Virus genome (UHGV): UHGV-1472620
DNA: 39,677 nt
Reading direction: 5' to 3' (one strand)
From: a virus
In this document: piece by piece, positions 2,155 through 34,139 of the stretch
Layout: each line of letters opens with the position of its first letter
Numbering within the stretch: the first letter of the stretch is position 1
Position numbers and translations under genes: made by a program
The notes under the pieces: generated by a model
What the model was told of the DNA's origin: nothing
Database searches by the model: none
The model's input: the letters and a program-made list of their open reading frames with translations, nothing else

Positions 2155-4911
2155 TTAGCTACTTTCAAGCATTGCAAGACGTGATTCTATTTTTTCGATT
2201 CTTCTACGCAAATAAGCTGACTCAAGCCATAAACACTGGTCAGTACGGATACCCCACCTATTTCCAGCCTTGCAAACCAGAGTTCGCTCTTCTGTTTCGT
2301 ATTCTTCTTCCATCTCAATTTCGACGCCATCCACAACTTTAGTGATCATCCTTACCGCCATCACTGGCGCGTATTTATCATCCCATTCATCGTAACAGAG
2401 AAGGCCAAATCTGGTTCCATCAATCCCATGCGCGAGGAAAGTGTCTCTCACTTGTTGTGCTATAACACCAAAATGCCAGCGGGCACCATCTCCCTTTTCC
2501 CTGACGGCATCAAGCCAGCGAAAAGCTACAATCCTGATATCTCCCCATGCATCCAGAATTGCATCACCTTCATAACCACGAGACATATACAAGCTGAGCT
2601 CACTTGTACTAATCGGTTCACTTTTTTCTCTACCATCTGATGTGTTTATCGAACCGTTCGCAGAATAAACCTGTGCCCATCTAAATGATGGTGCACCAAG
2701 AGATTTGCTGTTATCAATAATTGGTGAAAAATTACCTTTAATGGCAATATTTCCAGAGTCGCCGAATACATTAATAACTGCAGAGTCATCACCATGGTTT
2801 TTTACGCTTAAGTTTCTTGATGAAATATTTATATCTTTGTTATATCCACTAACATTAATCCATCTTTTACCATCAGTGTGATACCCGTAAATATTTCCGT
2901 CTGATTGTTCGTCAGGTGACTCTCTAAGAACAATAGCATCTGCTCCAGACGACCATTGTATTTTTGTATCTGTAGGCCTCCAGTTCTTTATAATGAACGA
3001 ACCATCAGTAAACTCCGTTTTTATTTGTCTATTGTCTACAAATGCGTCTCTTGGTTTAAACTCACTTGTGTTAACGCTGCTCTGAAGATCAGAAGCAAAA
3101 AATCTAAGATTTCCTGTATAACCCTGAGTCTCGGTCAGGTTATACGCAATCATAATTCCATTTTCAAACTCAGATGATGTTATTTTAACATCACGGCAAT
3201 CACCAAAAATGCAATTTCCTTTATCAAAGGTTGTTTGAGCTTTGAATTTATCAAACCTTAAATTACGAACAGGGAAACCATCAACCTCTAATGCAAAGGA
3301 TGCAGGAAGGCCAAAGTATTCTGATGGCTTACCTGATGTATGATCAAGAGTAGTGGCTACTGTATTCTCAAAAACAGTCCCGCTAAAATTATTACCAATT
3401 GACGGAAACCTGATTACACTTATTGTACCTTGTATTTCAGGAGAAATACCAGATAGTGTGATGTTAGTTCCATCAAATGATGCATCTGAATACGTATATA
3501 CTGATTCACTGCCAGCAATTTTAAACTGTTTAACTGAAGTTATTCTCATCGACTTTTTATGTTTAAATGTCACTGAGCTTTCAGTATTACTTACAAGATC
3601 AATCTGAGGGCTATTCCTTATCGCGATCCCTGACTGGACATAAACGTTATTAAAGTGCGTTTTTTCAGGATTTCCCTTCATTGAAAGGCTCCCGTCATTT
3701 TCTGTCAGTAGTAGTCCTTTTACCCTCCAATAGCCGACAATCTGTACGTTATCAATAACTGAATCACAGCTATCGTATACATGCAACCCTATATCCCAGT
3801 CATCACCCAATGAATAAGAATCAGGGTTATTGTATCCTTCAATACCATTTTTACTTACCATTATTCTCAGGTTGCGTAACTGTGATGCCCTGTTGATACT
3901 AACAGCTACGCTCATGGCTTTTGGTGTAGCAGGAGTAACACCTACAGAATCTTCATTTGTAAACTCAGTGAACTTACAAGATATCCCTTCAACAATTTTA
4001 ACTGGTCTTTCATTAGAGATGTTAAAAAAATATTTGTTTTTTTCTCCATCACCAGTAAATACAAGATGGGTTCCTTTACTCCAACTTTTTAATAATCTTT
4101 CAGGCGCTGGTCTATATGTATCCCAATAATCAATGCCATCACCAATTAATGACACTCCAGGAGGCACATCTATGTTCTTAGAAATCATCCATTTACCTGC
4201 AGGTATTCTAACGACACTTGCACCAGAATTTATCGCATTAATTAACCATTCAGACGCATCAACTTCAAAATTTAATGCAGCATATCTTTGCTCAAACGGA
4301 ACAAAATCAAGAGCGTTAACGTTATCCCGCATCTTATCCTGGAACGTTCGGTATACTGCTCCAGAACCATACTGAATAAACCAACCAAAACCACCAACAA
4401 CTCCGGCGATTGCAGCATCAACATAATTGCGCATTGATCGATTATTTACAGCATCCTGCTCAAATGATGGATCTGCAAGGTTAGAAATTTTGTTTTGCTT
4501 TGCATCGTAATATTTTGCAAGCAAAGATGGTTTCATCAATGCACGTCTGAACCACCCAAAACATTGCTGGATCAGCATCGTCAGGTAGTCAAAGGCATCT
4601 TCATGCACTTCGGGGAAAAATTTTCCCTGATTGCGAAGGTCTGTCTCCTGCACTACATCAAGCACACGATCTATCGTAATTCGCCATCCAGTAGCAAGCG
4701 GAGACGGAAGAACCACAGAACCGCCACTATAAGTGCCCGCCCCAGTTACCGTATAACCGGTATCCAGAACCAATTCTGTTACGTTTCCGTTCAGATCAGA
4801 CACCTGAACAACCAGGTCTGATTTTCTGAAAATTCGAAAAGTATACGGAAACGATGTCGTAACGCCGTTACCGGTGTATTCGTTGTGGTCAACTTCGGTT
4901 GAGACCGTCAT
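2155..4911 (-). CDS. Tailspike / tail fibre with C-terminal intramolecular chaperone (peptidase S74-like) domain
   Basis: 918 aa; C-terminal SDGREKSEPI ... HFGVIAQQV pattern typical of self-cleaving chaperone domains; AT-rich central region. Confidence 0.8.
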   Translation of the reverse strand: MTVSTEVDHNEYTGNGVTTSFPYTFRIFRKSDLVVQVSDLNGNVTELVLDTGYTVTGAGTYSGGSVVLPSPLATGWRITIDRVLDVVQETDLRNQGKFFPEVHEDAFDYLTMLIQQCFGWFRRALMKPSLLAKYYDAKQNKISNLADPSFEQDAVNNRSMRNYVDAAIAGVVGGFGWFIQYGSGAVYRTFQDKMRDNVNALDFVPFEQRYAALNFEVDASEWLINAINSGASVVRIPAGKWMISKNIDVPPGVSLIGDGIDYWDTYRPAPERLLKSWSKGTHLVFTGDGEKNKYFFNISNERPVKIVEGISCKFTEFTNEDSVGVTPATPKAMSVAVSINRASQLRNLRIMVSKNGIEGYNNPDSYSLGDDWDIGLHVYDSCDSVIDNVQIVGYWRVKGLLLTENDGSLSMKGNPEKTHFNNVYVQSGIAIRNSPQIDLVSNTESSVTFKHKKSMRITSVKQFKIAGSESVYTYSDASFDGTNITLSGISPEIQGTISVIRFPSIGNNFSGTVFENTVATTLDHTSGKPSEYFGLPASFALEVDGFPVRNLRFDKFKAQTTFDKGNCIFGDCRDVKITSSEFENGIMIAYNLTETQGYTGNLRFFASDLQSSVNTSEFKPRDAFVDNRQIKTEFTDGSFIIKNWRPTDTKIQWSSGADAIVLRESPDEQSDGNIYGYHTDGKRWINVSGYNKDINISSRNLSVKNHGDDSAVINVFGDSGNIAIKGNFSPIIDNSKSLGAPSFRWAQVYSANGSINTSDGREKSEPISTSELSLYMSRGYEGDAILDAWGDIRIVAFRWLDAVREKGDGARWHFGVIAQQVRDTFLAHGIDGTRFGLLCYDEWDDKYAPVMAVRMITKVVDGVEIEMEEEYETEERTLVCKAGNRWGIRTDQCLWLESAYLRRRIEKIESRLAMLESS

Positions 4912-5015
4912 GTTAAATCTCCAGATAGTCGCAGCACCCGTTGCGCCGCATATCTGGTTATTCTATTACCTGGAAAACCACATATGGATAGAAAGGCTGT
5001 AAATACGAATAGATA

Positions 5016-5030
5016 TTACCTTTCAGGTAA
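5016..5030. promoter_or_regulatory. Operator-like palindrome TTACC-N5-GGTAA
   Basis: TTACCTTTCAGGTAA, about 75 bp upstream of ATG 5107. Confidence 0.55.
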
Positions 5031-5106
5031 TTTGCAAAACGTGCTGGATAGCAAACAAATTATTTGCTACTGTATAAATATACAGTTATTGCATGGAGAA
5101 GATAAG

Positions 5107-5364
5107 ATGCAGCGGTATCACTATCCACTGGAAGACGGATTTACCGAAAGGATTCACACGCCGGGAGGCGTCAGGTCACTGGTGGAGGGATCGCACTTGA
5201 TGAAATTACTCCGGGATCTCGATAAGGATGGATTTAATGTCGATGGCCCACTTGCCGAACTGACTGCACTGATTAACTACGTCACCAGCTCACAGATGTC
5301 TATGCAGGATCTGCAAACACATCTCGACTATTGTGCCGAACAATTACGAAAACAAACCACATAA
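5107..5364 (+). CDS. Stand-alone paralog of the antirepressor C-terminal domain
   Basis: RIHTPGGVRSLVEGSHLMKLLRDLDKDGFNVDGPLAELTALINY...DLQTHLDY aligns with C-terminus of Bro-N protein 6819-7511; start chosen downstream of the operator. Confidence 0.5.
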   Translation: MQRYHYPLEDGFTERIHTPGGVRSLVEGSHLMKLLRDLDKDGFNVDGPLAELTALINYVTSSQMSMQDLQTHLDYCAEQLRKQTT

Positions 5365-5370
5365 AGAAAA

Positions 5371-5386
5371 GGCCGCGAAAGCGGCC
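5371..5386. terminator. Hairpin GGCCGCGAAAGCGGCC between convergent genes
   Basis: Perfect 6-bp GC stem with GAAA loop between stops at 5364 and 5388; identical hairpin at 8716-8731. Confidence 0.55.
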
Positions 5387-5387
5387 A

Positions 5388-5894
5388 TTAACAGTCGTAA
5401 AATTCTGGGTCCCACAAACTTGCATCGCGCGGCATGGATTCTAACTTTTTCAGCCGCAAAATTCTGTCACACTCGACAACTAATTTTTGCTTCTGCTCGT
5501 CAATTTCTACTGTCTTATGCGCTGGTTCATCCCAATAATCCAGAAGGAAGGCATGGCGTTCAGATGTGACCAGATAAATCACATACACGTCACTGGTTGG
5601 GATCTTTTTATGCTTGTTAGTGGTCTTGTCTTTCTTCCCAGACGCCCAGTTTTTCCAGCATTGTTCCGTACCGCTCTCACCAAACTTGTCAGTATAGTTT
5701 CCGATGTTTAAGTGAACGTGGCGTATGTGATATTCCAGCATCTCTTTCGGTGGATCTCGAAACAGAGTGTCCTTTCCGAAATCCTTATGATGACCGTAGC
5801 GCCAGTGATCTATGAACGCGTTTTTGATAGGTATTAGCTCAGGGTCCTTCCCAAAAATTCCAGGGTGAACCAACCCCTGGAATTTATTCGGCAT
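5388..5894 (-). CDS. Toxin-like protein A, paralog of 7954-8466 (possible YafO-like family)
   Basis: Shares HWRxGHH, GKDTLF, VHxNIG, CTEQCW and YWDxPAH motifs with protein B; ATG overlaps upstream partner stop by 11 nt. Confidence 0.6.
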   Translation of the reverse strand: MPNKFQGLVHPGIFGKDPELIPIKNAFIDHWRYGHHKDFGKDTLFRDPPKEMLEYHIRHVHLNIGNYTDKFGESGTEQCWKNWASGKKDKTTNKHKKIPTSDVYVIYLVTSERHAFLLDYWDEPAHKTVEIDEQKQKLVVECDRILRLKKLESMPRDASLWDPEFYDC

Positions 5895-6399
5895 CGTCGT
5901 AGAGCTCCTGAGCCATGTCTTCAGCAGTGCGTGCAAACATCCTTCGAGAAATTGCATGCGATTTTTCAACAGACATCTTTGGTACTTCTCGCATTACAAC
6001 CTCATGTGACGCTGTAGGCTTAAAAGATGACTTATAATACCGCTTTATCATCTCAACTAATTGCTGCTTATCCTTGGAGCGTCCAGTTTCGATTAGCCTT
6101 GACTCGTAAGGTCGCATTATATTCGTTTGACATGAGGCACGATGAAGCTTATCTGCCAAGATTCCTTCAAAAGATGTGCCCCGGATTTTTAACAATGCCT
6201 CATGCTGGTCGTATTCAGTGATGAACATAACCGGGTATTTTTGCTCAACTTCTTCATCATGAATCCTGATGGCATTGGCAGTTGCTATGGCAGCAGCATA
6301 AGCGGCTGCTTCAATCACCATCTTTTTCTCTTTTTCTTTTTCAGACTTTTTCAAGGTCAAGCGTCTATGCCTCATCGCTGCAACTCTCTTCGTGTTCAT
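5884..6399 (-). CDS. Upstream partner of protein A (antitoxin-like), basic N-terminus and acidic C-terminus
   Basis: Overlaps A start; ends ELYDDAE; track ORF starts at TTG 6411, ATG at 6399 preferred. Confidence 0.5.
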   Translation of the reverse strand: MNTKRVAAMRHRRLTLKKSEKEKEKKMVIEAAAYAAAIATANAIRIHDEEVEQKYPVMFITEYDQHEALLKIRGTSFEGILADKLHRASCQTNIMRPYESRLIETGRSKDKQQLVEMIKRYYKSSFKPTASHEVVMREVPKMSVEKSHAISRRMFARTAEDMAQELYDDAE

Positions 6400-6536
6400 G
6401 GGCACCCCCAACTACCTCTAGGGTAAACATTCTATCGAAAGTATACGCATACTGGCAAAAAAATAGGCAGGCATTTTCTGAAATGGGATCAATCAAACCA
6501 CATAGGGTTGAAATAACGTGAGTTATGCATTTATTA

Positions 6537-6551
6537 TTACCTTTACGGTAA
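6537..6551. promoter_or_regulatory. Operator-like palindrome TTACC-N5-GGTAA
   Basis: TTACCTTTACGGTAA in divergent intergenic region between A' and Bro-N gene. Confidence 0.55.
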
Positions 6552-6818
6552 ATTTACATCGCACTCCTCTTGTGCCATAGTAATCGGGCACTGGCAAAAT
6601 CCAGTGCCGGGATTGGTCTCCCGGATTACTACAGAGGCACATATGCCGCATAAGCGGTTTTTTTATGTGTAAAGCGCACCTATTCTATGGTGGGCTGTGT
6701 GGGGGCACCGAAAGGTGCGCCGGGTTCCTTTGTAGCCGGTAAGACCAACTCTGCACAGTTCACCACCATCTGATTGGTCTCAGCGGTGGTGATTAACCTA
6801 ACTACAAAGGTGATCGCC

Positions 6819-7511
6819 ATGAATACCAAACCTTCCATCTTTTCCTTTGAGTCATCCTGCCAGATCCGTATGTTCATGATTGACGGAGAACCTTGGTTTG
6901 TCACCAAAGATGTGTGCAATGCTTTGAATATTGATGTTACACAAGCGAGAAAACTTGATAAAAAAGGCTGGAACAAAAAGGGGCTGTATTCAATACAGAC
7001 CCCTGGTGGAATACAAGAACTATCCATCGTTTCAGAATCAGGTCTCTACATCCTTATTCTGCGTTGCAAAGAGGCAATGACTGAGGGAACGAGAGCATTC
7101 AGATTTCTTGAATGGGTTACAGGTGAGGTTCTTCCTCAGATCCGCCGCACCGGAAGTTACATTAAAAACTCGCTCCCGCAGGAAGAACGCATAAAGATGG
7201 TTGCCGACCAGGTAGCCAACGCCACGGCGTCAGCAGTGATGCAGGCAATGAAGATAGAGAACAAAACCTACAGTGCCCCGCTGAAGCCCGGCTACCGCAG
7301 TCTGATTCATTCTCCGTCTGGTGTTCTCGGCCTGACGGAGAACTCACTGCTGATGAATCTGCTGAACCAGTTGCAGGACGACGGGCATGATGTATCGGGC
7401 GCGGCGGCGGAACTGACCACCATGTTCTGCTACATTGTCGGTGTGAGCAAATGCCTGCGTGATATCCAGACGCACGCGGAGTACATCAACGACAAGGCAG
7501 GGTTCTTCTGA
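6819..7511 (+). CDS. Antirepressor with N-terminal Bro-N domain
   Basis: N-terminal FESSCQIRMFMIDGEPWFVTKDVCNALNI ... SESGLYILILRCKE resembles Bro-N/Ant; AAGGTGA Shine-Dalgarno before ATG 6819. Confidence 0.75.
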   Translation: MNTKPSIFSFESSCQIRMFMIDGEPWFVTKDVCNALNIDVTQARKLDKKGWNKKGLYSIQTPGGIQELSIVSESGLYILILRCKEAMTEGTRAFRFLEWVTGEVLPQIRRTGSYIKNSLPQEERIKMVADQVANATASAVMQAMKIENKTYSAPLKPGYRSLIHSPSGVLGLTENSLLMNLLNQLQDDGHDVSGAAAELTTMFCYIVGVSKCLRDIQTHAEYINDKAGFF

Positions 7512-7583
7512 CGGGCGGTGGCACAGGGATGTGCCTTTAAATAATTCTGTACAGATTGCAGACCGGGGGTGAATAGCGTACTA

Positions 7584-7598
7584 TTACCTTAAAGGTAA
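7584..7598. promoter_or_regulatory. Operator-like palindrome TTACC-N5-GGTAA
   Basis: TTACCTTAAAGGTAA, 43 bp upstream of B' start. Confidence 0.55.
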
Positions 7599-7640
7599 AC
7601 CTGTTTTTATTTTATACCTGTAACTTACCGGAGATTAAAG

Positions 7641-7967
7641 ATGACAAAACTTGGATTCGTGATGAGAGGTCCGGTAAGAAGCGGAACTCATGCAAAGCGT
7701 AGCAAGAGTCGTATTTTTACTGGTAAGGTTGTAGCACGTAAATCAGCTATTGGCTCGTTCAATAGTGAAAATGCGGCATTGCGCCATATTTTTATCAGCA
7801 CAAAGCCAAGAGCATCCGCTGATGTGCATACAATGTCTATTCCTATCACAAAGAATATAAAGCGGATAAAAAAGCTCTCATCTGCAGAATCAAAAGAGAT
7901 ATCTTTCCGCCAGCTTAACTCATTAGAAACGCATATGAAGGAAGAGGAATTCGATGTTTTTGAGTGA
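7641..7967 (+). CDS. Upstream partner of protein B (antitoxin-like), basic N-terminus and acidic C-terminus
   Basis: 108 aa, ends KEEEFDVFE; stop overlaps B start by 14 nt; GGAG Shine-Dalgarno before ATG. Confidence 0.5.
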   Translation: MTKLGFVMRGPVRSGTHAKRSKSRIFTGKVVARKSAIGSFNSENAALRHIFISTKPRASADVHTMSIPITKNIKRIKKLSSAESKEISFRQLNSLETHMKEEEFDVFE

Positions 7968-8466
7968 GTATAGCGGGAAGGTTATACCTACTGGTGAGTT
8001 TAAAACTGATGACTTTCTGATTTCGCTAAAAGATGCTTTTAAACAACACTGGCGTCATGGTCATCATCCTGATCTGGGAAAAGATACTCTTTTTGAAAGA
8101 CCAGAGGAAGTATTAGGCTTCCATCTCAGAAAGGTTCATGTCAATATTGGTGAATATGCATCATATTCATACTCATGTACTGAACAGTGTTGGGATGAGT
8201 GGTCATATGGATTGATTGATGAACAAGGAAATTACAGGCCAAAACCAACCAGTAACGCATATCTCATATATGCAGTCAATGAAATAAGAGATGCAGCCTT
8301 ACTAGCTTATTGGGACCCGCCCGCACACACCAAAGCTAACGCAAAAGTTTGGATGGATTCCGTATTGAATTTCACAAAATTATTTCATGAACGAACGAAT
8401 ACAGCTCCACTTAGTAGAAATGTTTATCCGTGGGATTATTCGTACAAATCCAAAAAGCCTGCATAG
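7954..8466 (+). CDS. Toxin-like protein B, paralog of 5388-5894 (possible YafO-like family)
   Basis: Motifs shared with A (see above); strong GAAGGAAGAGGA Shine-Dalgarno; AT-rich coding region. Confidence 0.6.
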   Translation: MFLSEYSGKVIPTGEFKTDDFLISLKDAFKQHWRHGHHPDLGKDTLFERPEEVLGFHLRKVHVNIGEYASYSYSCTEQCWDEWSYGLIDEQGNYRPKPTSNAYLIYAVNEIRDAALLAYWDPPAHTKANAKVWMDSVLNFTKLFHERTNTAPLSRNVYPWDYSYKSKKPA

Positions 8467-8547
8467 TAGTTTTTTATGGACGAAACAAAAGTCAGTGCTA
8501 CACTCATTGACGCCACATTGAGGTGGTTTATAGATGGAAATTTCACA

Positions 8548-8709
8548 ATGAAAAAAGCATTTGCTGCACTGTTCGTTTTGTTGTCTCTGGTAGCTTCAAC
8601 TCAGGCCTTTGCCGGTCGTTGTCAGCACGACAGCGATACTGCCGCTGACGGCTCCCGCTGCGGTGGGCGTTCTGCGGATTCCCGCCCGGGCGGCGGTGGC
8701 ATTCGTTAA
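8548..8709 (+). CDS. Small secreted peptide (signal peptide plus about 30-aa Cys/Gly-rich mature part)
   Basis: MKKAFAALFVLLSLVASTQAFA signal-like N-terminus; track ORF begins at 8476 but signal peptide favours 8548; weak Shine-Dalgarno. Confidence 0.35.
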   Translation: MKKAFAALFVLLSLVASTQAFAGRCQHDSDTAADGSRCGGRSADSRPGGGGIR

Positions 8710-8715
8710 AAACAA

Positions 8716-8737
8716 GGCCGCGAAAGCGGCCTGTTTG
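8716..8737. terminator. Hairpin GGCCGCGAAAGCGGCC plus T-tract
   Basis: Same hairpin as 5371-5386, followed by TGTTTG; sits between convergent stops 8709 and 8739. Confidence 0.6.
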
Positions 8738-8738
8738 A

Positions 8739-9590
8739 TCACTGTGCAGTTTTCGCTGATCGATTTTCAGCTCTAAATTCAAGAACCGTTTCAATATTTC
8801 TTTCCTTCAGCATATCAATAACATTTTTATTCATTTGACTATCACTGGTTAATAACTGGTAAACGTTGCTTCTCTCTTTATCAGAGTTTTCTTTAACAGC
8901 TGCTTTGCATGCCAAATGCTTATTGAAATTTTCTACATCGCTAGTACAGGAATTTACGGCTGCTGATGAAATATCAGACGCTGAAGAAACACCATCATCC
9001 AAACGTTTTATAGCATTTTCTATACATGAGTTAAGGGAATAAACGACAACTGAGCGATACCCTTCAGACGCACACCATTCTAAATTTCTTGAAGGATCGA
9101 GTGGTTTTACTTCGCTGGATTGAATTAACTTGTCAAAAACTGACTTATATTCAATCTGTTTTTTATCTATAGCCCATACTTCAGTAGCTGATTTATAATT
9201 CCCCGTATGCCTATTAACATCAAATCCATGCTTTATAAGCAAATCTGCCCATGAAAGATTTATTGATTCATTGTTATGAGGCCATTTTCCTGTCAGAACC
9301 GCCCCCATAGACCCCATATATCCGCCATATGATGGTATAGCACCATGGCTCAGTAACTTCTCAGCAACCACAGGGCAATTAATTACATAAGAGGCGTAAA
9401 GCCCATTCCATAAAGCCCCTCTATAGTAATCGCCACGATTAGGTTCTTTTAAGTCGATAGCCTTTGATAATTGTTCACACGTTTTGCATGCATCAAAGTT
9501 ATCCTTATTGCATTGCAATGAACTGGCAGCTGTAGGATTTACAGAGACTATTGAAAGCACTATGCCAAAAAACAAATTTATTTTTTTCAT
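8739..9590 (-). CDS. Secreted or periplasmic protein of unknown function
   Basis: N-terminal signal peptide MKKINLFFGIVLSIVSVNPTAASS; AT-rich; start abuts stop of 1129-aa virion protein (TAGGATG). Confidence 0.6.
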   Translation of the reverse strand: MKKINLFFGIVLSIVSVNPTAASSLQCNKDNFDACKTCEQLSKAIDLKEPNRGDYYRGALWNGLYASYVINCPVVAEKLLSHGAIPSYGGYMGSMGAVLTGKWPHNNESINLSWADLLIKHGFDVNRHTGNYKSATEVWAIDKKQIEYKSVFDKLIQSSEVKPLDPSRNLEWCASEGYRSVVVYSLNSCIENAIKRLDDGVSSASDISSAAVNSCTSDVENFNKHLACKAAVKENSDKERSNVYQLLTSDSQMNKNVIDMLKERNIETVLEFRAENRSAKTAQ

Positions 9591-9591
9591 C

Positions 9592-12500
9592 CTATTTCAT
9601 CTGCTCTTCAACTTTATTTAGTAATGGTGATATCGCCCACAGATTCTGAAAAGGTAGCATTTTACGGACAGCGTGGGTTTGCTGGCTGTCAAATTCTCCG
9701 TTAAGTACACCATTTGCAACCGTCGCGGCATCACCGCCAAGATCAAAGGTAGGACCAAGTAAAGCACCAATAGCATTACGACTCTGAAACCTTGATACCG
9801 GAGGCGCACCAAACATCGCGCCAAGACCAAACCTACCGCCGCTTATGTTCTCAACGGTATTCAGCGGCTCAGAGAGCCAGCCAAGCATTCCGCCCCGGTC
9901 GATCCCCTCTTTCACAAGGTTATTCCAGCTGTAGTCGATATCGCGACCGCTTAACTTCTGTTTCATCATATAGACCATTGAGCCAAGCGCAATCGTGCCA
10001 AGCGCACCAAGATAGAATGCAGCATCGCCCTGCTGGATACCAGATACCAGCACCCTGTTATGCTGTGCGAAGATAAACGTTTTGAACTGCGTGATCATCT
10101 TCCAGCCTTCTTTACTAAAAAACAGCGGTGTATCACCTACGCCAGGCGTTACAATCACTGAGTCTACATCTTTCAGCACTGCAGACTGGAAAATCTCTCT
10201 AGCGAAACGGTCATCCCACAGATGACTATGCCCGGTTAACAGCCCGTCCATATCCTCTCCGTGCTTCCCGAATTGCTCCCCGATTCGGCGCAGAACATCT
10301 TCATTGATGCCGACCTGTGCCATCTTCCGCATTTCACTTTTGGAGAGCGTGCCACCAGCAGAAACTTGGCGAGCCGCGTCAAGTATCCTCGACTGCACTA
10401 TCATCCCGGACCATGATTTAAGTGCGCTGTTCCACTGATTCATCAGCGTCCAGTTACCGAATTTCTGCGTCATCCAGTTCAGACCTCGCTCAGCGGCGCT
10501 TCTCCGGCTATAGGGGTCAGTAAGATCCGCTATAGCCTTTGTACGCGTAGACAGGACATAATCAAGCCCAACGGCCATTTCTCGCAAATCCCTGGTTGCA
10601 ATTTTCACTGAGTCCATATTTTTAAGCATGCTTACCATTGGTCCGAGAGATTTTCTCAGGCCATGCTGCATCATCGGTCGCATCAGATCAGTTGCAGCGG
10701 AGACAGTCATTCCACCAAGCAAACGGAGGAAGTTAATATTCCTAGCAACTCGCCCGGCACGAACAAAGAAACTGCGTGGATCTTGAGGTGCGCCGTAAGT
10801 ACCAAGCAGTCGATCACGCATAGCCGTAATATCCCTAATATCAGCCTCCCGTTGCTTCTCAAGAGCTGCACGTCGTTTAGGTGTTTTAGCCTCTTTTATT
10901 AGCCGGGTATATTCCTCACTAACCTGACGGATTTGCTCCCCCATATCTTTACGGCCAAACTGCGCAGTCAGCTCAATTTCTGGCGCCACCTGCCGGAGAT
11001 AACTTTCCATGATGTAGTTAACATCTGATTCAAGAAAATCTTCTATACGCTCATCAGGAATAAGCAGCGTTCGGCTTTTAGTGAAACCAGCCCGACCAAC
11101 GAGTCTCTCTGGGATAATATCGGCTGGTACAAGCCCGGAAGGTGCGCCTATTATTTTATTCACGATCTCGTCAGCAGCGTCCTCTGCTTCCTCTCGGGAT
11201 AGAGGCTCCATCTGCTTCAGTGCTCGTTCGCGGCTTGCATTCAGCCTTGTGGTTGAATTTGCCCGTTTTTGCAGTCGGCGAAGCTCAGAACGATATTTCC
11301 GTGGATTATCCAGCAACTCCATATGGCGCTGATAGACAGGAAGCTCACTCTTTGCCTGCGCTATATCATCAAGGCGTGTTTTAAGGTCAGAGCTTTCTTT
11401 CATCATTCTTGCCTGAAGTTTTTCTGATGAAGTCTCGGCCAACTCTTTTTCTATTCTTGTAAGACGCGCCTGTGTGTCAGTCTCCTGAGATATAAGCTTA
11501 TTTCGTTTATCCAGTTCTTCCATGAGTAGAATTTTTTTACCAGACCATTTCTCCGCTTCAGCGATTTCACTAGCGAGAGCATCAGCGCGCGGTGCTGATT
11601 CCTCTGCAGTTTTTAGCAATGAATTTATCCTTTCAATTCGCTGACCTGCTTTGTCAGCACCTTTGGCACTAATCCCTTGTATCCAGTTGGCAATTCGCCC
11701 TCTGAATTCAGTGCGGTCGGAAAGTATCTTATCGAACTTATAAATGCGGGGAAGATAACTTTTCGCCGTCACGACATCGATATCCTCAGGAAGGATCCCC
11801 AGTTCCTGCATACGGGCTTTTGTGGTCTCGAAAATGGGGCGGATTCTGGCGGCTGCTTGTGAAACCTCAGGAATATCACTCTGATCACCACGGCGCATAG
11901 CCATGCCAACAGCTTCATTGAAATCAATAAAGTTCATCCTCTTCACGCCGCGGTCGCTAACAGATTTGCTGTACTGCTGGTAAGCATCACGAGTAGCTTC
12001 CATCTGCTTATAAAGCATGGCGTCGTATTGCTTAATCTTAGTCTCGACTGCCGTAAACGTAGCCAACCCCTCATCATTTTTGGCGAAGAAATAGTTATTT
12101 TCGGCAAGCTGCTGGTTAATCTGACGGGAAACAAGAGATGGTGATTGCGCCAAGCGGCCAGCAGGAGTGACACTCAACGTTTTGTTAGCAAGTCCAAGTC
12201 CAGCGAGCTGTTCCTGATCGAGTGTGGTATTGAAAACCTGAGCTGCACCAATGCTTTGAGGAGAATCCATACCTCGCAAATGATTACCTACTGAGTTAAC
12301 CACTGCCTCGCGCGCGCTAGGTCCAGCAAGTAGCTGTGCACCAGCACCAAGGATCCCACCAACGAGAGCATCAACAACAACGTTCGATACGCTCTCCATC
12401 GGTGAGCGAGCTTCCTGAGTGGCCTGCAATGCGGCCTCTGAAGCAACACTGCCAGCAGCATTGGCTAAAGCAAAACGTCCGGCTGTTTCTGCAATACGAC

Positions 12501-12981
12501 CGCCACGAACGACAGCGCCGAACGGAATAAACATAGAAATCGCATTGAATGGATCTGCTAATCTCATTGCTACAGAAGAGACTGTACCAGCAAATCCCAA
12601 GCCTGAATTGTATTCCATGTCAGCTCTCTGCTGATCGATTCGATGTTTAATTGCCATTGTTTCTTCAGGCGAACCGGAGTTGATAAACGAATCTGCAAAA
12701 TCTTCATAGCCTTTAATATCTGCTGCATCGTTATCAAATGGGTTATATCCTTCAACCCTGTCAAACTGACTGAAAGGAGCACTGGCAATAAAGCTACCCA
12801 GCGTGTTATCTATACGAAATGCTGCTTGTCTAGACCTTTGAACGCGTTGATCACTGGTAAATGGGTTCACAGCAGAAAGCAAAGAAGGTGTTTCCATATA
12901 GAAATTACTGTCATCAGGTGCTGCTATTTGCTGAATATCCTCGCCAAGCAACTCTTTAGGATCCTGTTCATATATCGGCAT
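9592..12981 (-). CDS. Very large internal virion / ejection protein
   Basis: 1129 aa with long charged coiled-coil centre and Gly/Ala-rich N-terminus; position in late operon. Confidence 0.7.
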   Translation of the reverse strand: MPIYEQDPKELLGEDIQQIAAPDDSNFYMETPSLLSAVNPFTSDQRVQRSRQAAFRIDNTLGSFIASAPFSQFDRVEGYNPFDNDAADIKGYEDFADSFINSGSPEETMAIKHRIDQQRADMEYNSGLGFAGTVSSVAMRLADPFNAISMFIPFGAVVRGGRIAETAGRFALANAAGSVASEAALQATQEARSPMESVSNVVVDALVGGILGAGAQLLAGPSAREAVVNSVGNHLRGMDSPQSIGAAQVFNTTLDQEQLAGLGLANKTLSVTPAGRLAQSPSLVSRQINQQLAENNYFFAKNDEGLATFTAVETKIKQYDAMLYKQMEATRDAYQQYSKSVSDRGVKRMNFIDFNEAVGMAMRRGDQSDIPEVSQAAARIRPIFETTKARMQELGILPEDIDVVTAKSYLPRIYKFDKILSDRTEFRGRIANWIQGISAKGADKAGQRIERINSLLKTAEESAPRADALASEIAEAEKWSGKKILLMEELDKRNKLISQETDTQARLTRIEKELAETSSEKLQARMMKESSDLKTRLDDIAQAKSELPVYQRHMELLDNPRKYRSELRRLQKRANSTTRLNASRERALKQMEPLSREEAEDAADEIVNKIIGAPSGLVPADIIPERLVGRAGFTKSRTLLIPDERIEDFLESDVNYIMESYLRQVAPEIELTAQFGRKDMGEQIRQVSEEYTRLIKEAKTPKRRAALEKQREADIRDITAMRDRLLGTYGAPQDPRSFFVRAGRVARNINFLRLLGGMTVSAATDLMRPMMQHGLRKSLGPMVSMLKNMDSVKIATRDLREMAVGLDYVLSTRTKAIADLTDPYSRRSAAERGLNWMTQKFGNWTLMNQWNSALKSWSGMIVQSRILDAARQVSAGGTLSKSEMRKMAQVGINEDVLRRIGEQFGKHGEDMDGLLTGHSHLWDDRFAREIFQSAVLKDVDSVIVTPGVGDTPLFFSKEGWKMITQFKTFIFAQHNRVLVSGIQQGDAAFYLGALGTIALGSMVYMMKQKLSGRDIDYSWNNLVKEGIDRGGMLGWLSEPLNTVENISGGRFGLGAMFGAPPVSRFQSRNAIGALLGPTFDLGGDAATVANGVLNGEFDSQQTHAVRKMLPFQNLWAISPLLNKVEEQMK

Positions 12982-19229: not shown

Positions 19230-19834
19230 CAGGACAACCTCGCAATGGTAAACTCGTCAACCGGTGGCTGTGGTTCCTGTGATTCATTCTGGCTATGCGA
19301 GCCAGCACTAAGAATCACGCGATTGTACATATTGAGGGCAAACGTACCGAGGTCTGCATTCCCAGTCAGCGCCATGTTAATAGCTGCCGCAAGACGCCAA
19401 GCCAACGCCTCCATAAAAATGGCATCAAACATGTTCACATCTGTAACGCGAGAGACATACTTGAGCCATGCCTGCGGCTGGTCTGTGTAGATCAATTTTC
19501 CTGTTCCGTTGGTGTCTGCACCAACTTCGTACTGAACACGCATTGCTGCTGTTGGATTGCGTACACCAGGAAGCATAATTTCAGTAATGCGCAGACAATC
19601 GGACGGGTACTGATACGCATATTCCCAGTCAGGCGGTGGATTGCTCGTATCTGCAAGCGCCACGCGTTTGGTAGCAAAGTTCCAGTCAAAATCAGAAAGC
19701 ACAGCATCACGGCAGGCCTCAAAGTGCAGCGAACATTCCCCCGCTTCCTTGCTGGCTTCCGTCAGGCTGTTAATGCTGCGGCTGTTGCCAATATTGGACA
19801 GCGCACGATTACAGATCTCTACTACAGAGGCCAT
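19229..19834 (-). CDS. Tail tubular protein A-like (adaptor)
   Basis: 201 aa; position between head genes and the 823-aa tail gene. Confidence 0.5.
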   Translation of the reverse strand: MASVVEICNRALSNIGNSRSINSLTEASKEAGECSLHFEACRDAVLSDFDWNFATKRVALADTSNPPPDWEYAYQYPSDCLRITEIMLPGVRNPTAAMRVQYEVGADTNGTGKLIYTDQPQAWLKYVSRVTDVNMFDAIFMEALAWRLAAAINMALTGNADLGTFALNMYNRVILSAGSHSQNESQEPQPPVDEFTIARLS

Positions 19835-25998: not shown

Positions 25999-26010
25999 GT
26001 GACATGTCAC
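25999..26010. promoter_or_regulatory. Perfect 12-bp palindrome GTGACATGTCAC
   Basis: Identical to 28264-28275; sits just after the stop of 25638-25994. Confidence 0.5.
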
Positions 26011-26014
26011 AAAC

Positions 26015-26042
26015 AGCCAGCCGATGAGCTGGCTTTGTTTTA
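26015..26042 (+). terminator. Intrinsic terminator
   Basis: Stem AGCCAGC / GCTGGCT with loop CGATGA then TTGTTTTAT. Confidence 0.65.
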
Positions 26043-26084
26043 TCCTCACCAGAGGATATCAACGACATTATCCCCACCAGCGGA

Positions 26085-28263: not shown

Positions 28264-28275
28264 GTGACATGTCAC
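28264..28275. promoter_or_regulatory. Perfect 12-bp palindrome GTGACATGTCAC (late promoter / regulator site candidate)
   Basis: Identical to 25999-26010; contains GTGACA -35-like hexamer on both strands. Confidence 0.5.
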
Positions 28276-31088: not shown

Positions 31089-31153
31089 AATTTACCCCTG
31101 AGGTAATTAAAAACCACATAAGACACGAAATCAATAGAGTTTAGAATACTTTG

Positions 31154-33554: not shown

Positions 33555-34139
33555 ATGAAAAGTATCCAGGACGTCCGCAGGCAAAATCTCAACGACTTGA
33601 TCGACCGTGAATTCAATGGTGTTCAGACGCGGATGGCAGAAAAACTTGGAACTCAGGCAAATCTGGTAAACCGCTGGGCTCTTGGCAAGAAGGTTATCGG
33701 CGACCAGGTTGCGCGAAAAATTGAAGCTGCCGCCAATAAACCCCGTAACTGGCTTGATATCGATCGCTCGCTTTCTCAGGAAGGTTTTCAGCCTGTCGGC
33801 CCAAGCGACATTGGTCAGCTGGCGGCTCACAACCTGGAACGCTGGATGAGCGAAAGCCGCGACCTTTCAACGCAGGGAAAACTTCACCGCGCATCCGGCG
33901 TCGCCCAGGTGACAATCAGTCGCCTGTTAAACAATGAGGTCAGCGTTTCCATTTCCACCCTGGAGAATGTTGCATCCGCATTCGGGCGTCACGGATATGA
34001 ACTACTGATTCACCCGCACGACCCTGCGACTATCAACTATGACCGCTCGCGCTACGCATTGTTACCCGAAACCGAGAAAGCAAAGATCGAAAGTTACATT
34101 GAATTTGTCATCAACCAGAACGAAAAAAGCAAACAATAA
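33555..34139 (+). CDS. Prophage repressor with tandem HTH domains and no peptidase domain
   Basis: Two Cro/C1-type HTH-like segments; no Ser-Lys autopeptidase region seen. Confidence 0.7.
   Translation: MKSIQDVRRQNLNDLIDREFNGVQTRMAEKLGTQANLVNRWALGKKVIGDQVARKIEAAANKPRNWLDIDRSLSQEGFQPVGPSDIGQLAAHNLERWMSESRDLSTQGKLHRASGVAQVTISRLLNNEVSVSISTLENVASAFGRHGYELLIHPHDPATINYDRSRYALLPETEKAKIESYIEFVINQNEKSKQ

Follow-up and report, generated by a model that had tools for sequence, protein, structure and literature searches.

Two identical terminator-like hairpins border a modular accessory region in a Uetakevirus-type prophage of Escherichia coli

Conserved sequences at the module junctions of temperate phages are the subject of the lambdoid "boundary sequence" idea. 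The P1/P7 immI operon consists of a C1-controlled promoter, the c4 antisense RNA, icd and ant, and integron cassettes carry attC hairpin sites. Morons, a concept from phages HK97 and HK022, are extra transcription units that are present in some relatives only and often have a deviant base composition (PMC3594210). Each of these systems has something in common with a 16-bp hairpin that occurs twice in the virus genome UHGV-1472620, a stretch of 39,677 nucleotides referred to here as the window. The two copies, hairpin 1 and hairpin 2 (HP1 and HP2), enclose 3.3 kb of accessory genes, and the original prediction took them as a sign that this block was acquired, or can be exchanged, as a unit. The reading preferred here, with a probability of roughly 80%, is that the hairpins are duplicated ordinary terminators flanking an accessory hotspot built of modules, and not the ends of one mobile cassette. 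The architecture is that of an ordinary moron or mosaic boundary; HP2 is already annotated in phage phiV10, and no new mechanism is involved.

The region is matched by the named phages phiV10, phiv142-3, TL-2011b and EC.W1-9 and, more distantly, by Enterobacter phage Tyrion, a Klebsiella phage and Salmonella E15-type phages, and from these matches the window is assigned to a Uetakevirus (epsilon15/phiV10-like) prophage of E. coli. Over the 6.5 kb compared (4000-10500) it is 100% identical to the prophages of E. coli Combat2C1 and one other genome, and about 585 of 5,426 complete E. coli genomes match the region. The comparative set consisted of 14 annotated relatives and 80 viral contig loci from IMG/VR anchored on the p19-like gene, a homologue of epsilon15 gp19; 72 of the loci were informative.

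GGCCGCGAAAGCGGCC is present exactly at 5371-5386 and 8716-8731, both times on the plus strand and 3345 bp apart, and no further copy with up to two mismatches was found on either strand of the window. None of 100 dinucleotide-preserving shuffles of the window gave two or more copies. Each copy lies between convergent stop codons, as had been predicted. HP1 is placed between the stop of the p19-like gene (5362-5364, plus strand) and the end of a YafO-like open reading frame (ORF) at 5388 on the minus strand, and HP2 between the stop of a gene for a 53-amino-acid peptide (8707-8709, plus strand) and the end of a 283-amino-acid ORF at 8739 on the minus strand. The plus-strand stops are 6 nt from both hairpins, and the minus-strand stops are 1 nt from HP1 and 7 nt from HP2. 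The similarity of the two copies runs leftward for 9 nt past the hairpin to the TAA stop codon of the upstream plus-strand gene (TAAAGAAAAGGCCGCGAAAGCGGCC versus TAAAAACAAGGCCGCGAAAGCGGCC), with 23 of 25 bases shared and an exact run of 18 bp.

5371-5386, minus strand: HP1, a 6-bp GC stem and tetraloop, then UUUUCUUUAU on the minus strand; predicted to terminate the YafO-like unit and to bound the p19 transcript at its 3' end
8716-8731, minus strand: HP2, followed by UUGUUUUUAAC on the minus strand; predicted to terminate the late structural operon and to bound the plus-strand accessory transcripts at their 3' ends

HP1 and HP2 are the two top-scoring terminator-like sites in a 20-kb scan. Both lie on the minus strand and combine 6-7 GC pairs with a T-run; the minus-strand tracts that follow are TTTTCTTTAT for HP1 and TTGTTTTTAAC for HP2. 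The predicted folds have a GC stem of 6-7 bp and a tetraloop, with energies of -14 to -17.5 kcal/mol and z of about -4. The GC stem-loop plus U-tract of an intrinsic terminator is found on the minus strand and not on the plus strand, and both hairpins are intergenic and just 3' of a stop codon. The GenBank record of phiV10 (DQ126339.2) marks the homologue of HP2 at 19505-19522 as a terminator on the same strand, an annotation that is itself a prediction. This homologue has the identical 16-mer and the same left flank, ending in ggcattcgttaaaaacaa, and it likewise closes the structural operon; unlike the window, phiV10 has a single hairpin copy and lacks HP1 and both YafO-like modules. No descriptions of these hairpins were found in the literature. 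From the scan, the modelled folds and the phiV10 annotation we infer that HP1 and HP2 are probably Rho-independent terminators acting on the minus strand, which bears out the terminator-like character claimed for them at the outset.

Practically all relatives, the Klebsiella and Enterobacter phages among them, have HP2 where the structural operon ends. Across relatives from E. coli, Klebsiella, Enterobacter, Salmonella, Citrobacter, Kluyvera and Erwinia its stem is invariant and its loop is variable. Stems are exact in 132 of 135 hairpin copies, and the loops observed are GAAA, AAGA, TAGA, TCTA, TTTT, TATT and TTCG. Prophage-like loci in Buttiauxella, Erwinia, Citrobacter, Scandinavium and Kluyvera (L216, L220 and L223-L225) have the same stem with a TTCG loop. 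In these other Enterobacterales genera a UNCG-type loop (TTCG) thus takes the place of a GNRA-type loop (GAAA), and both are stable tetraloop classes on an invariant stem. By a hairpin-centred count, 122 of 131 hairpins from 80+ loci lie at predicted convergent junctions. A cruder ORF-based test of convergent junctions was set aside; it gave 44 junctions without a hairpin, many of which were spurious short ORFs over the C4 RNA (offset -36).

HP1 is restricted to loci in which the p19-like gene is followed by a unit on the minus strand. The arrangements found among the informative loci are as follows:

35 of 72 loci: HP1 and a later hairpin; a minus-strand ORF begins 22-25 bp after p19
20 of 72 loci: later hairpin only; p19 runs directly into the plus-strand Bro region, and HP1 is absent in all 20
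12 of 72 loci: a single hairpin, scored as HP1, with nothing between ("empty")
5 of 72 loci: other states, namely 2 with HP1 only, 2 without an exact hairpin and 1 with several later hairpins

Related phages with the same genes and no hairpins were to count against the original prediction, and the 20 loci of the second kind keep the Bro region and HP2 without HP1. In the 12 empty contigs and in Salmonella phage VB_ST_E15, the order is p19 stop, AGAAAA, hairpin, TGTGACATGTCAC and structural gene. The empty-site hairpin therefore joins the left flank of HP1 (the p19 stop and AGAAAA) to the phiV10-type right flank of HP2 (TGTGACATGTCAC). At least 45 complete E. coli genomes carry this empty-site junction. 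The chimeric flanks of the single hairpin in E15, in the 12 viral contigs and in these genomes support a common descent of HP1 and HP2, as far as can be judged from sequence.

Could the two hairpins instead be unrelated, and identical because each converged independently on the best combination of GC stem and GNRA tetraloop? At least 83 stretches of viral contigs that match the window poorly or not at all at the nucleotide level contain the same 16-mer, and about half of these have A- or T-tracts typical of terminators, as convergence would predict; some of the stretches are, on the other hand, relatives in other genera. A motif with many copies per genome had also been named as evidence against the cassette, and while the window holds a single pair, the motif recurs widely in these contigs. 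However, convergence does not account for a similarity that continues past the hairpin to the stop codon, for a stem that is invariant throughout the family while the loops drift, or for single-hairpin relatives in which the flanks of HP1 and HP2 are fused at the hairpin. This reading was already disfavoured by the last point and is very improbable.

The exact identity of the pair is not conserved. Among the 35 two-hairpin loci, HP1 has the loop AAGA in 27 cases and GAAA in 5, and its loop differs from that of HP2 in 30; the HP2 loop is GAAA in 53 of 55. The loops at the empty sites (9 GAAA, 3 AAGA) are closer to HP2 than to HP1 (Fisher p=0.0004, with samples that are not independent), and these HP2-like loops hint at deletion between the repeats. 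In such a scheme the hairpins would serve as short direct repeats, and recombination or replication slippage would excise or restore the whole 3.3-kb block, making it a unit at the population level. The repeats are direct and share the 18-bp exact run and 23 of 25 bases, the empty sites are precise, with chimeric flanks and an HP2-like loop behind the left flank of HP1, and the phage carries a YqaJ-family recombination gene. Phage Rad52-like recombinases act on short or diverged homology (PMC3945230). However, 18 bp is shorter than the minimal efficient pairing length of Red-beta (23-27 bp) or RecA (31-34 bp) (PMC3945230), and the differing loops of most two-hairpin relatives reduce the exact identity to 8 bp plus 6 bp. 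The empty state is equally expected if it is ancestral, and most of the variation is module by module and not all-or-none. Since the identity is below the minimal pairing length and the variation is mostly modular, the block is no discrete mobile cassette, and its removal or restoration through the hairpins is possible but doubtful. The locus resembles the boundary or linker sequences described at module junctions, where relaxed Rad52-like recombination acts (PMC3945230), in having short conserved gene-end sequences at breakpoints and an encoded YqaJ-family function. It differs in that the element, at just 16-25 bp, does not reach the minimal pairing length reported there, and in that its conservation would be explained by terminator function.

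BLAST matches across hundreds of E. coli genomes stop exactly at 5364, 5386 and 8734, and internal breakpoints are located at 6491-6531, 7553-7600 and 8470. By these breakpoints the 3.3 kb is made up of at least four segments that assort independently: 5365-6494, about 6495-7553, about 7600-8469 and 8470-8734. The hairpins are the only conserved short sequence amid variable cargo and for this reason coincide with recombination breakpoints. The idea of a cassette acquired or exchanged as a unit is thus borne out in that empty one-hairpin relatives exist and the hairpins are exact mosaic breakpoints, and it fails in that the block is divided into these modules.

As in integrons, hairpin-forming repeats stand at the borders of variable cargo. 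Unlike integrons, there is no adjacent integrase, the repeats are a plain GC stem-loop and T-run, the cargo also recombines at other points, and the left hairpin is missing in many relatives with the same cargo. No recombinase gene was found within 4900-9700, HP1 is missing in 20 of 72 loci and the modules assort independently, so that the features of a site-specific, integron-like cassette are not present.

The arrangement would be explained if one family-wide terminator closes the minus-strand late operon at the point where this operon meets the plus-strand p19-like gene, with both HP1 and HP2 descending from it. Accessory transcription units would have split this convergent junction into two, each with a copy of the hairpin. 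The inserted units would be a minus-strand YafO-like pair with its own promoter, an immI-like plus-strand operon, a second YafO-like pair with an operator-bearing promoter and a small secreted peptide. Once a minus-strand unit stands beside p19, the p19-proximal terminator would serve that unit and the late operon would keep its own copy, giving paralogous hairpins. HP2 would stop the late operon, HP1 would stop the left YafO unit, and both would cap plus-strand 3' ends. Modules on either side of the hairpins would be swapped, lost and gained independently, and the exact identity of HP1 and HP2 in the window would be incidental, due to shared descent and possibly to short-patch conversion of the loop.

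Several points weigh against this explanation. The plus-strand U-tracts after both hairpins are poor (ATTAACAG after HP1, UGUUUGAU after HP2), which makes a role in bidirectional termination weak; plus-strand termination at the hairpins is probably partial. The tailspike and lysis genes are downstream of both hairpins on the minus strand, and their transcription needs either a promoter of its own or late read-through of HP1 and HP2. No sigma-70-like minus-strand promoter was flagged by a consensus scan at 4911-5107, 5' of the tailspike. Compensatory stem changes were not found among the 135 hairpin copies, and the three stem variants are single substitutions; covariation thus lends no support to the structure, and the stems may be conserved through recent shared ancestry and not through selection. 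The single-hairpin genomes may be ancestral or may be derived by deletion between HP1 and HP2.

If the hairpins are duplicated terminators, two terminators delimit a hypervariable accessory locus of a prophage family found in roughly one tenth of complete E. coli genomes. They could be used as anchors for cataloguing its cargo, which includes YafO-like pairs, Bro antirepressors, DUF2335 proteins and many proteins of unknown function. The locus illustrates how a convergent-junction terminator may be duplicated as accessory units accumulate. It also illustrates that an island with identical repeats at its two ends is not necessarily a mobile one.

The gene content between the hairpins is as originally described, with two toxin-like (YafO-like) genes, a Bro-N gene and a 53-amino-acid product with a signal-peptide-like sequence. 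The features of the YafO-like modules and of the right-hand border are:

5353-5364, plus strand: left copy of a 12-bp direct repeat, CAAACCACATAA, at the p19 3' end; flanks the left module
5388-5894, minus strand: left YafO-like gene; RefSeq "YafO family toxin"; phrog_1651; no Pfam match at E<=0.1
5884-6411 (RefSeq start 6399), minus strand: left partner ORF, putative antitoxin; overlaps the start of the YafO-like gene by 11 nt; phrog_9503, function unknown
6429-6458, minus strand: sigma-70-like promoter of the left module, TTGCCA-18-TAGAAT; consensus match only
6495-6506, plus strand: right copy of the 12-bp direct repeat, CAAACCACATAG; flanks the left module
7641-7967, plus strand: right partner ORF, putative antitoxin; overlaps the YafO-like gene by 14 nt; phrog_5933
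7954-8466, plus strand: right YafO-like gene; Pfam YafO_toxin 20.1 bits, gathering threshold 25
8548-8709, plus strand: 53-amino-acid signal-peptide-like product; phrog_14503 "membrane associated protein"; beside HP2 in most E. coli relatives
8739-9590, minus strand: 283-amino-acid AT-rich ORF, GC 0.37; variable last gene of the structural operon, outside the hairpin pair
9592-12981, minus strand: DUF919 internal virion protein; conserved right-hand backbone

The left and right YafO-like products are 46% identical, and the two partner ORFs are unrelated to each other. RefSeq places both products in the YafO family; by the Pfam PF13957 gathering threshold of 25 bits the right copy falls short with 20.1 bits and the left copy gives no match. 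TL-2011b gp44, which is 33% identical to the right copy, scores 26.3 bits for YafO_toxin. The proteins of the window are thus distant YafO relatives at best. The 11- and 14-nt gene overlaps would fit a type II toxin-antitoxin layout, and no antitoxin domain was recognised in either partner.

In the same slots other relatives carry DUF2335 proteins, other hypothetical proteins or another minus-strand gene, and the right module in particular is replaced by DUF2335 and other genes in some of them. Pfam searches of this alternative cargo gave only DUF2335 and one YafO match. PADLOC identified no defence systems among eight window proteins or ten alternative cargo proteins of relatives, and there were no NCBIfam matches. 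The left YafO module is present in 58 E. coli genomes, the same number as the junction of p19, HP1 and YafO, out of about 500 E. coli genomes that carry the prophage family. It was not seen on any plasmid, and in E. coli it was confined to the p19 junction; the idea of a mobile element that also resides elsewhere was rejected on these grounds. In Tyrion, two window segments overlap by the 12-bp direct repeat that flanks this module.

On the minus strand the structural operon ends with the DUF919 gene and then the 283-amino-acid ORF, which is replaced by other genes in phiV10, phiv142-3 and TL-2011b. The tailspike gene (2155-4911) and the lysis genes lie further on, and these are also downstream of the plus-strand accessory genes. 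In the identical Combat2C1 prophage, RefSeq flags the tailspike as a partial gene.

The GC content between the hairpins is 0.447, compared with 0.479 for the window. It is 0.44 in the left module and 0.39 in the right module (7600-8469), against 0.48-0.50 in the backbone, and the Bro gene with its leader and intergenic sequence is at the backbone level of 0.49. The most AT-rich stretches lie outside the hairpins, in the 283-amino-acid ORF (0.37) and the receptor-binding part of the tailspike (0.38). The AT-richness reported for parts of the block, especially 7600-9600, is real for the right module and for the ORF at 8739-9590; this ORF is beyond HP2, the Bro segment does not share the bias, and in windowed GC the low values are not bounded by the hairpins. 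The GC borders were for this reason rejected as evidence of a foreign cassette. The locus resembles morons in that its units are present in some close relatives and absent in others, and in the deviant GC of the left and right YafO units (PMC3594210). It is unlike them in the backbone-like GC of the Bro/immI part and in the repressor-operator-like motif of its plus-strand units, which may be repressed in the lysogen rather than expressed. A moron has its own promoter and terminator; here the terminators are predicted, and the promoter-like hexamers at 6458-6429 (minus strand), 6508-6537 and 7518-7545 (both plus strand) are weak candidates, since the promoter scan gave 16 sites compared with 32 in shuffled sequence.

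The central segment carries the antirepressor and its predicted control elements, and related elements are found around it:

5016-5030, no strand: TTACC-N5-GGTAA palindrome, candidate repressor operator, upstream of the p19-like gene
5107-5364, plus strand: p19-like gene; RefSeq coding sequence; phrog_450
6508-6537, plus strand: promoter-like site TTGAAA-18-TATTAT; overlaps the TTACC-N5-GGTAA palindrome at 6537-6551
6575-6627, plus strand: c4-a1b1 target; Rfam RF03163, 39.9 bits, below the gathering threshold of 46.7
6588-6664, plus strand: isrK; Rfam, 74.7 bits, gathering threshold 50; ends in a terminator-like hairpin at 6645-6658
6683-6770, plus strand: C4 antisense RNA; Rfam RF01695, 78.6 bits, gathering threshold 45
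6819-7511, plus strand: Bro-N antirepressor gene; Pfam Bro-N, 51.2 bits; phrog_130 Ant
7584-7598, no strand: TTACC-N5-GGTAA palindrome, upstream of the right module

As in P1/P7 immI, a C4 RNA recognised by Rfam and, with a score below threshold, an a1b1-like target are directly upstream of the antirepressor gene, which starts at 6819, and a candidate operator overlaps the promoter. Unlike P1/P7 immI, the segment has a Bro-N protein as its antirepressor and yielded no icd-like ORF, it includes an isrK-like stretch that ends in a terminator-like hairpin of its own, and further cargo genes follow in the same orientation. The order of isrK, C4 and Bro-N indicates, from sequence models, an immI-like antirepressor operon under antisense-RNA control in a podovirus-type prophage. 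Divergent promoter-like sites are located within 6429-6581. Overexpression of a related Uetakevirus antirepressor promoted lytic growth (PMC9782041). In the p19-like protein a homologue of the C-terminal domain of Bro stands alone, with 42% identity over 74 amino acids (Bro residues 149-222). The protein could be a remnant, or it could modulate how the antirepressor works.

The 15-bp palindrome TTACC-N5-GGTAA occurs in 10 exact copies in the window, where 0.01 are expected, at 5016, 6537, 7584, 25026, 28171, 31092, 31154, 33485, 34197 and 34259. Copies are located on both sides of the helix-turn-helix repressor-like gene (33555-34139), including the space between it and a divergent cro-like gene, before an early operon containing YqaJ, and in front of every accessory unit on the plus strand. 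The palindrome is probably the operator of the prophage repressor, and p19, Bro and the right YafO-like pair would then be under immunity control. AAACCACATA is found at 4975-4984 and 31111-31120 in addition to 5353-5364 and 6495-6506, about 41 bp upstream of the operator-like site of p19 and beside the operator-like pair at 31092 and 31154; it may be more than a recombination scar, namely a regulatory element.

A perfect 12-bp palindrome, GTGACATGTCAC, stands directly beside the hairpin in most relatives (L002, L004, L005, L007, L008, L016 and others) and at all empty sites. It has to be asked whether hairpin and palindrome together form a dedicated attachment site, into which immI/Bro cassettes are inserted in either orientation by a site-specific or hairpin-targeting process like that of integrons. 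The palindrome is kept next to the hairpin across genera, and three IMG/VR loci (L056, L061 and L070) carry two or three immI/Bro cassettes in alternating orientation, tail-to-tail at one hairpin and palindrome. However, the Bro copies within these loci differ in sequence and are therefore not recent duplications, the region and its immediate surroundings hold no recombinase gene, some breakpoints are not at hairpins, and the palindrome is missing at HP2 in the window and present elsewhere in its genome. A genome-wide scan for the composite of hairpin and GTGACATGTCAC gave six Enterobacterales prophage-like loci and six matches in high-GC genomes, of the order of a rough chance estimate, and two of the matches, when inspected, were without the full hairpin. 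An attachment site of this kind is hardly to be expected, and there is only a slim chance that GGCCGC-N4-GCGGCC and GTGACATGTCAC are a protein-recognised landing pad that captures immI/Bro cassettes in either orientation. If it were so, it would account for arrays of up to three antirepressor cassettes and would mean terminator-anchored cassette exchange in Uetakevirus-like prophages. In the window, GTGACATGTCAC is found at 25999-26010 and 28264-28275, where it adjoins another terminator-like hairpin (about 26014-26045) and lies about 33 bp upstream of the first ORF of the late operon.

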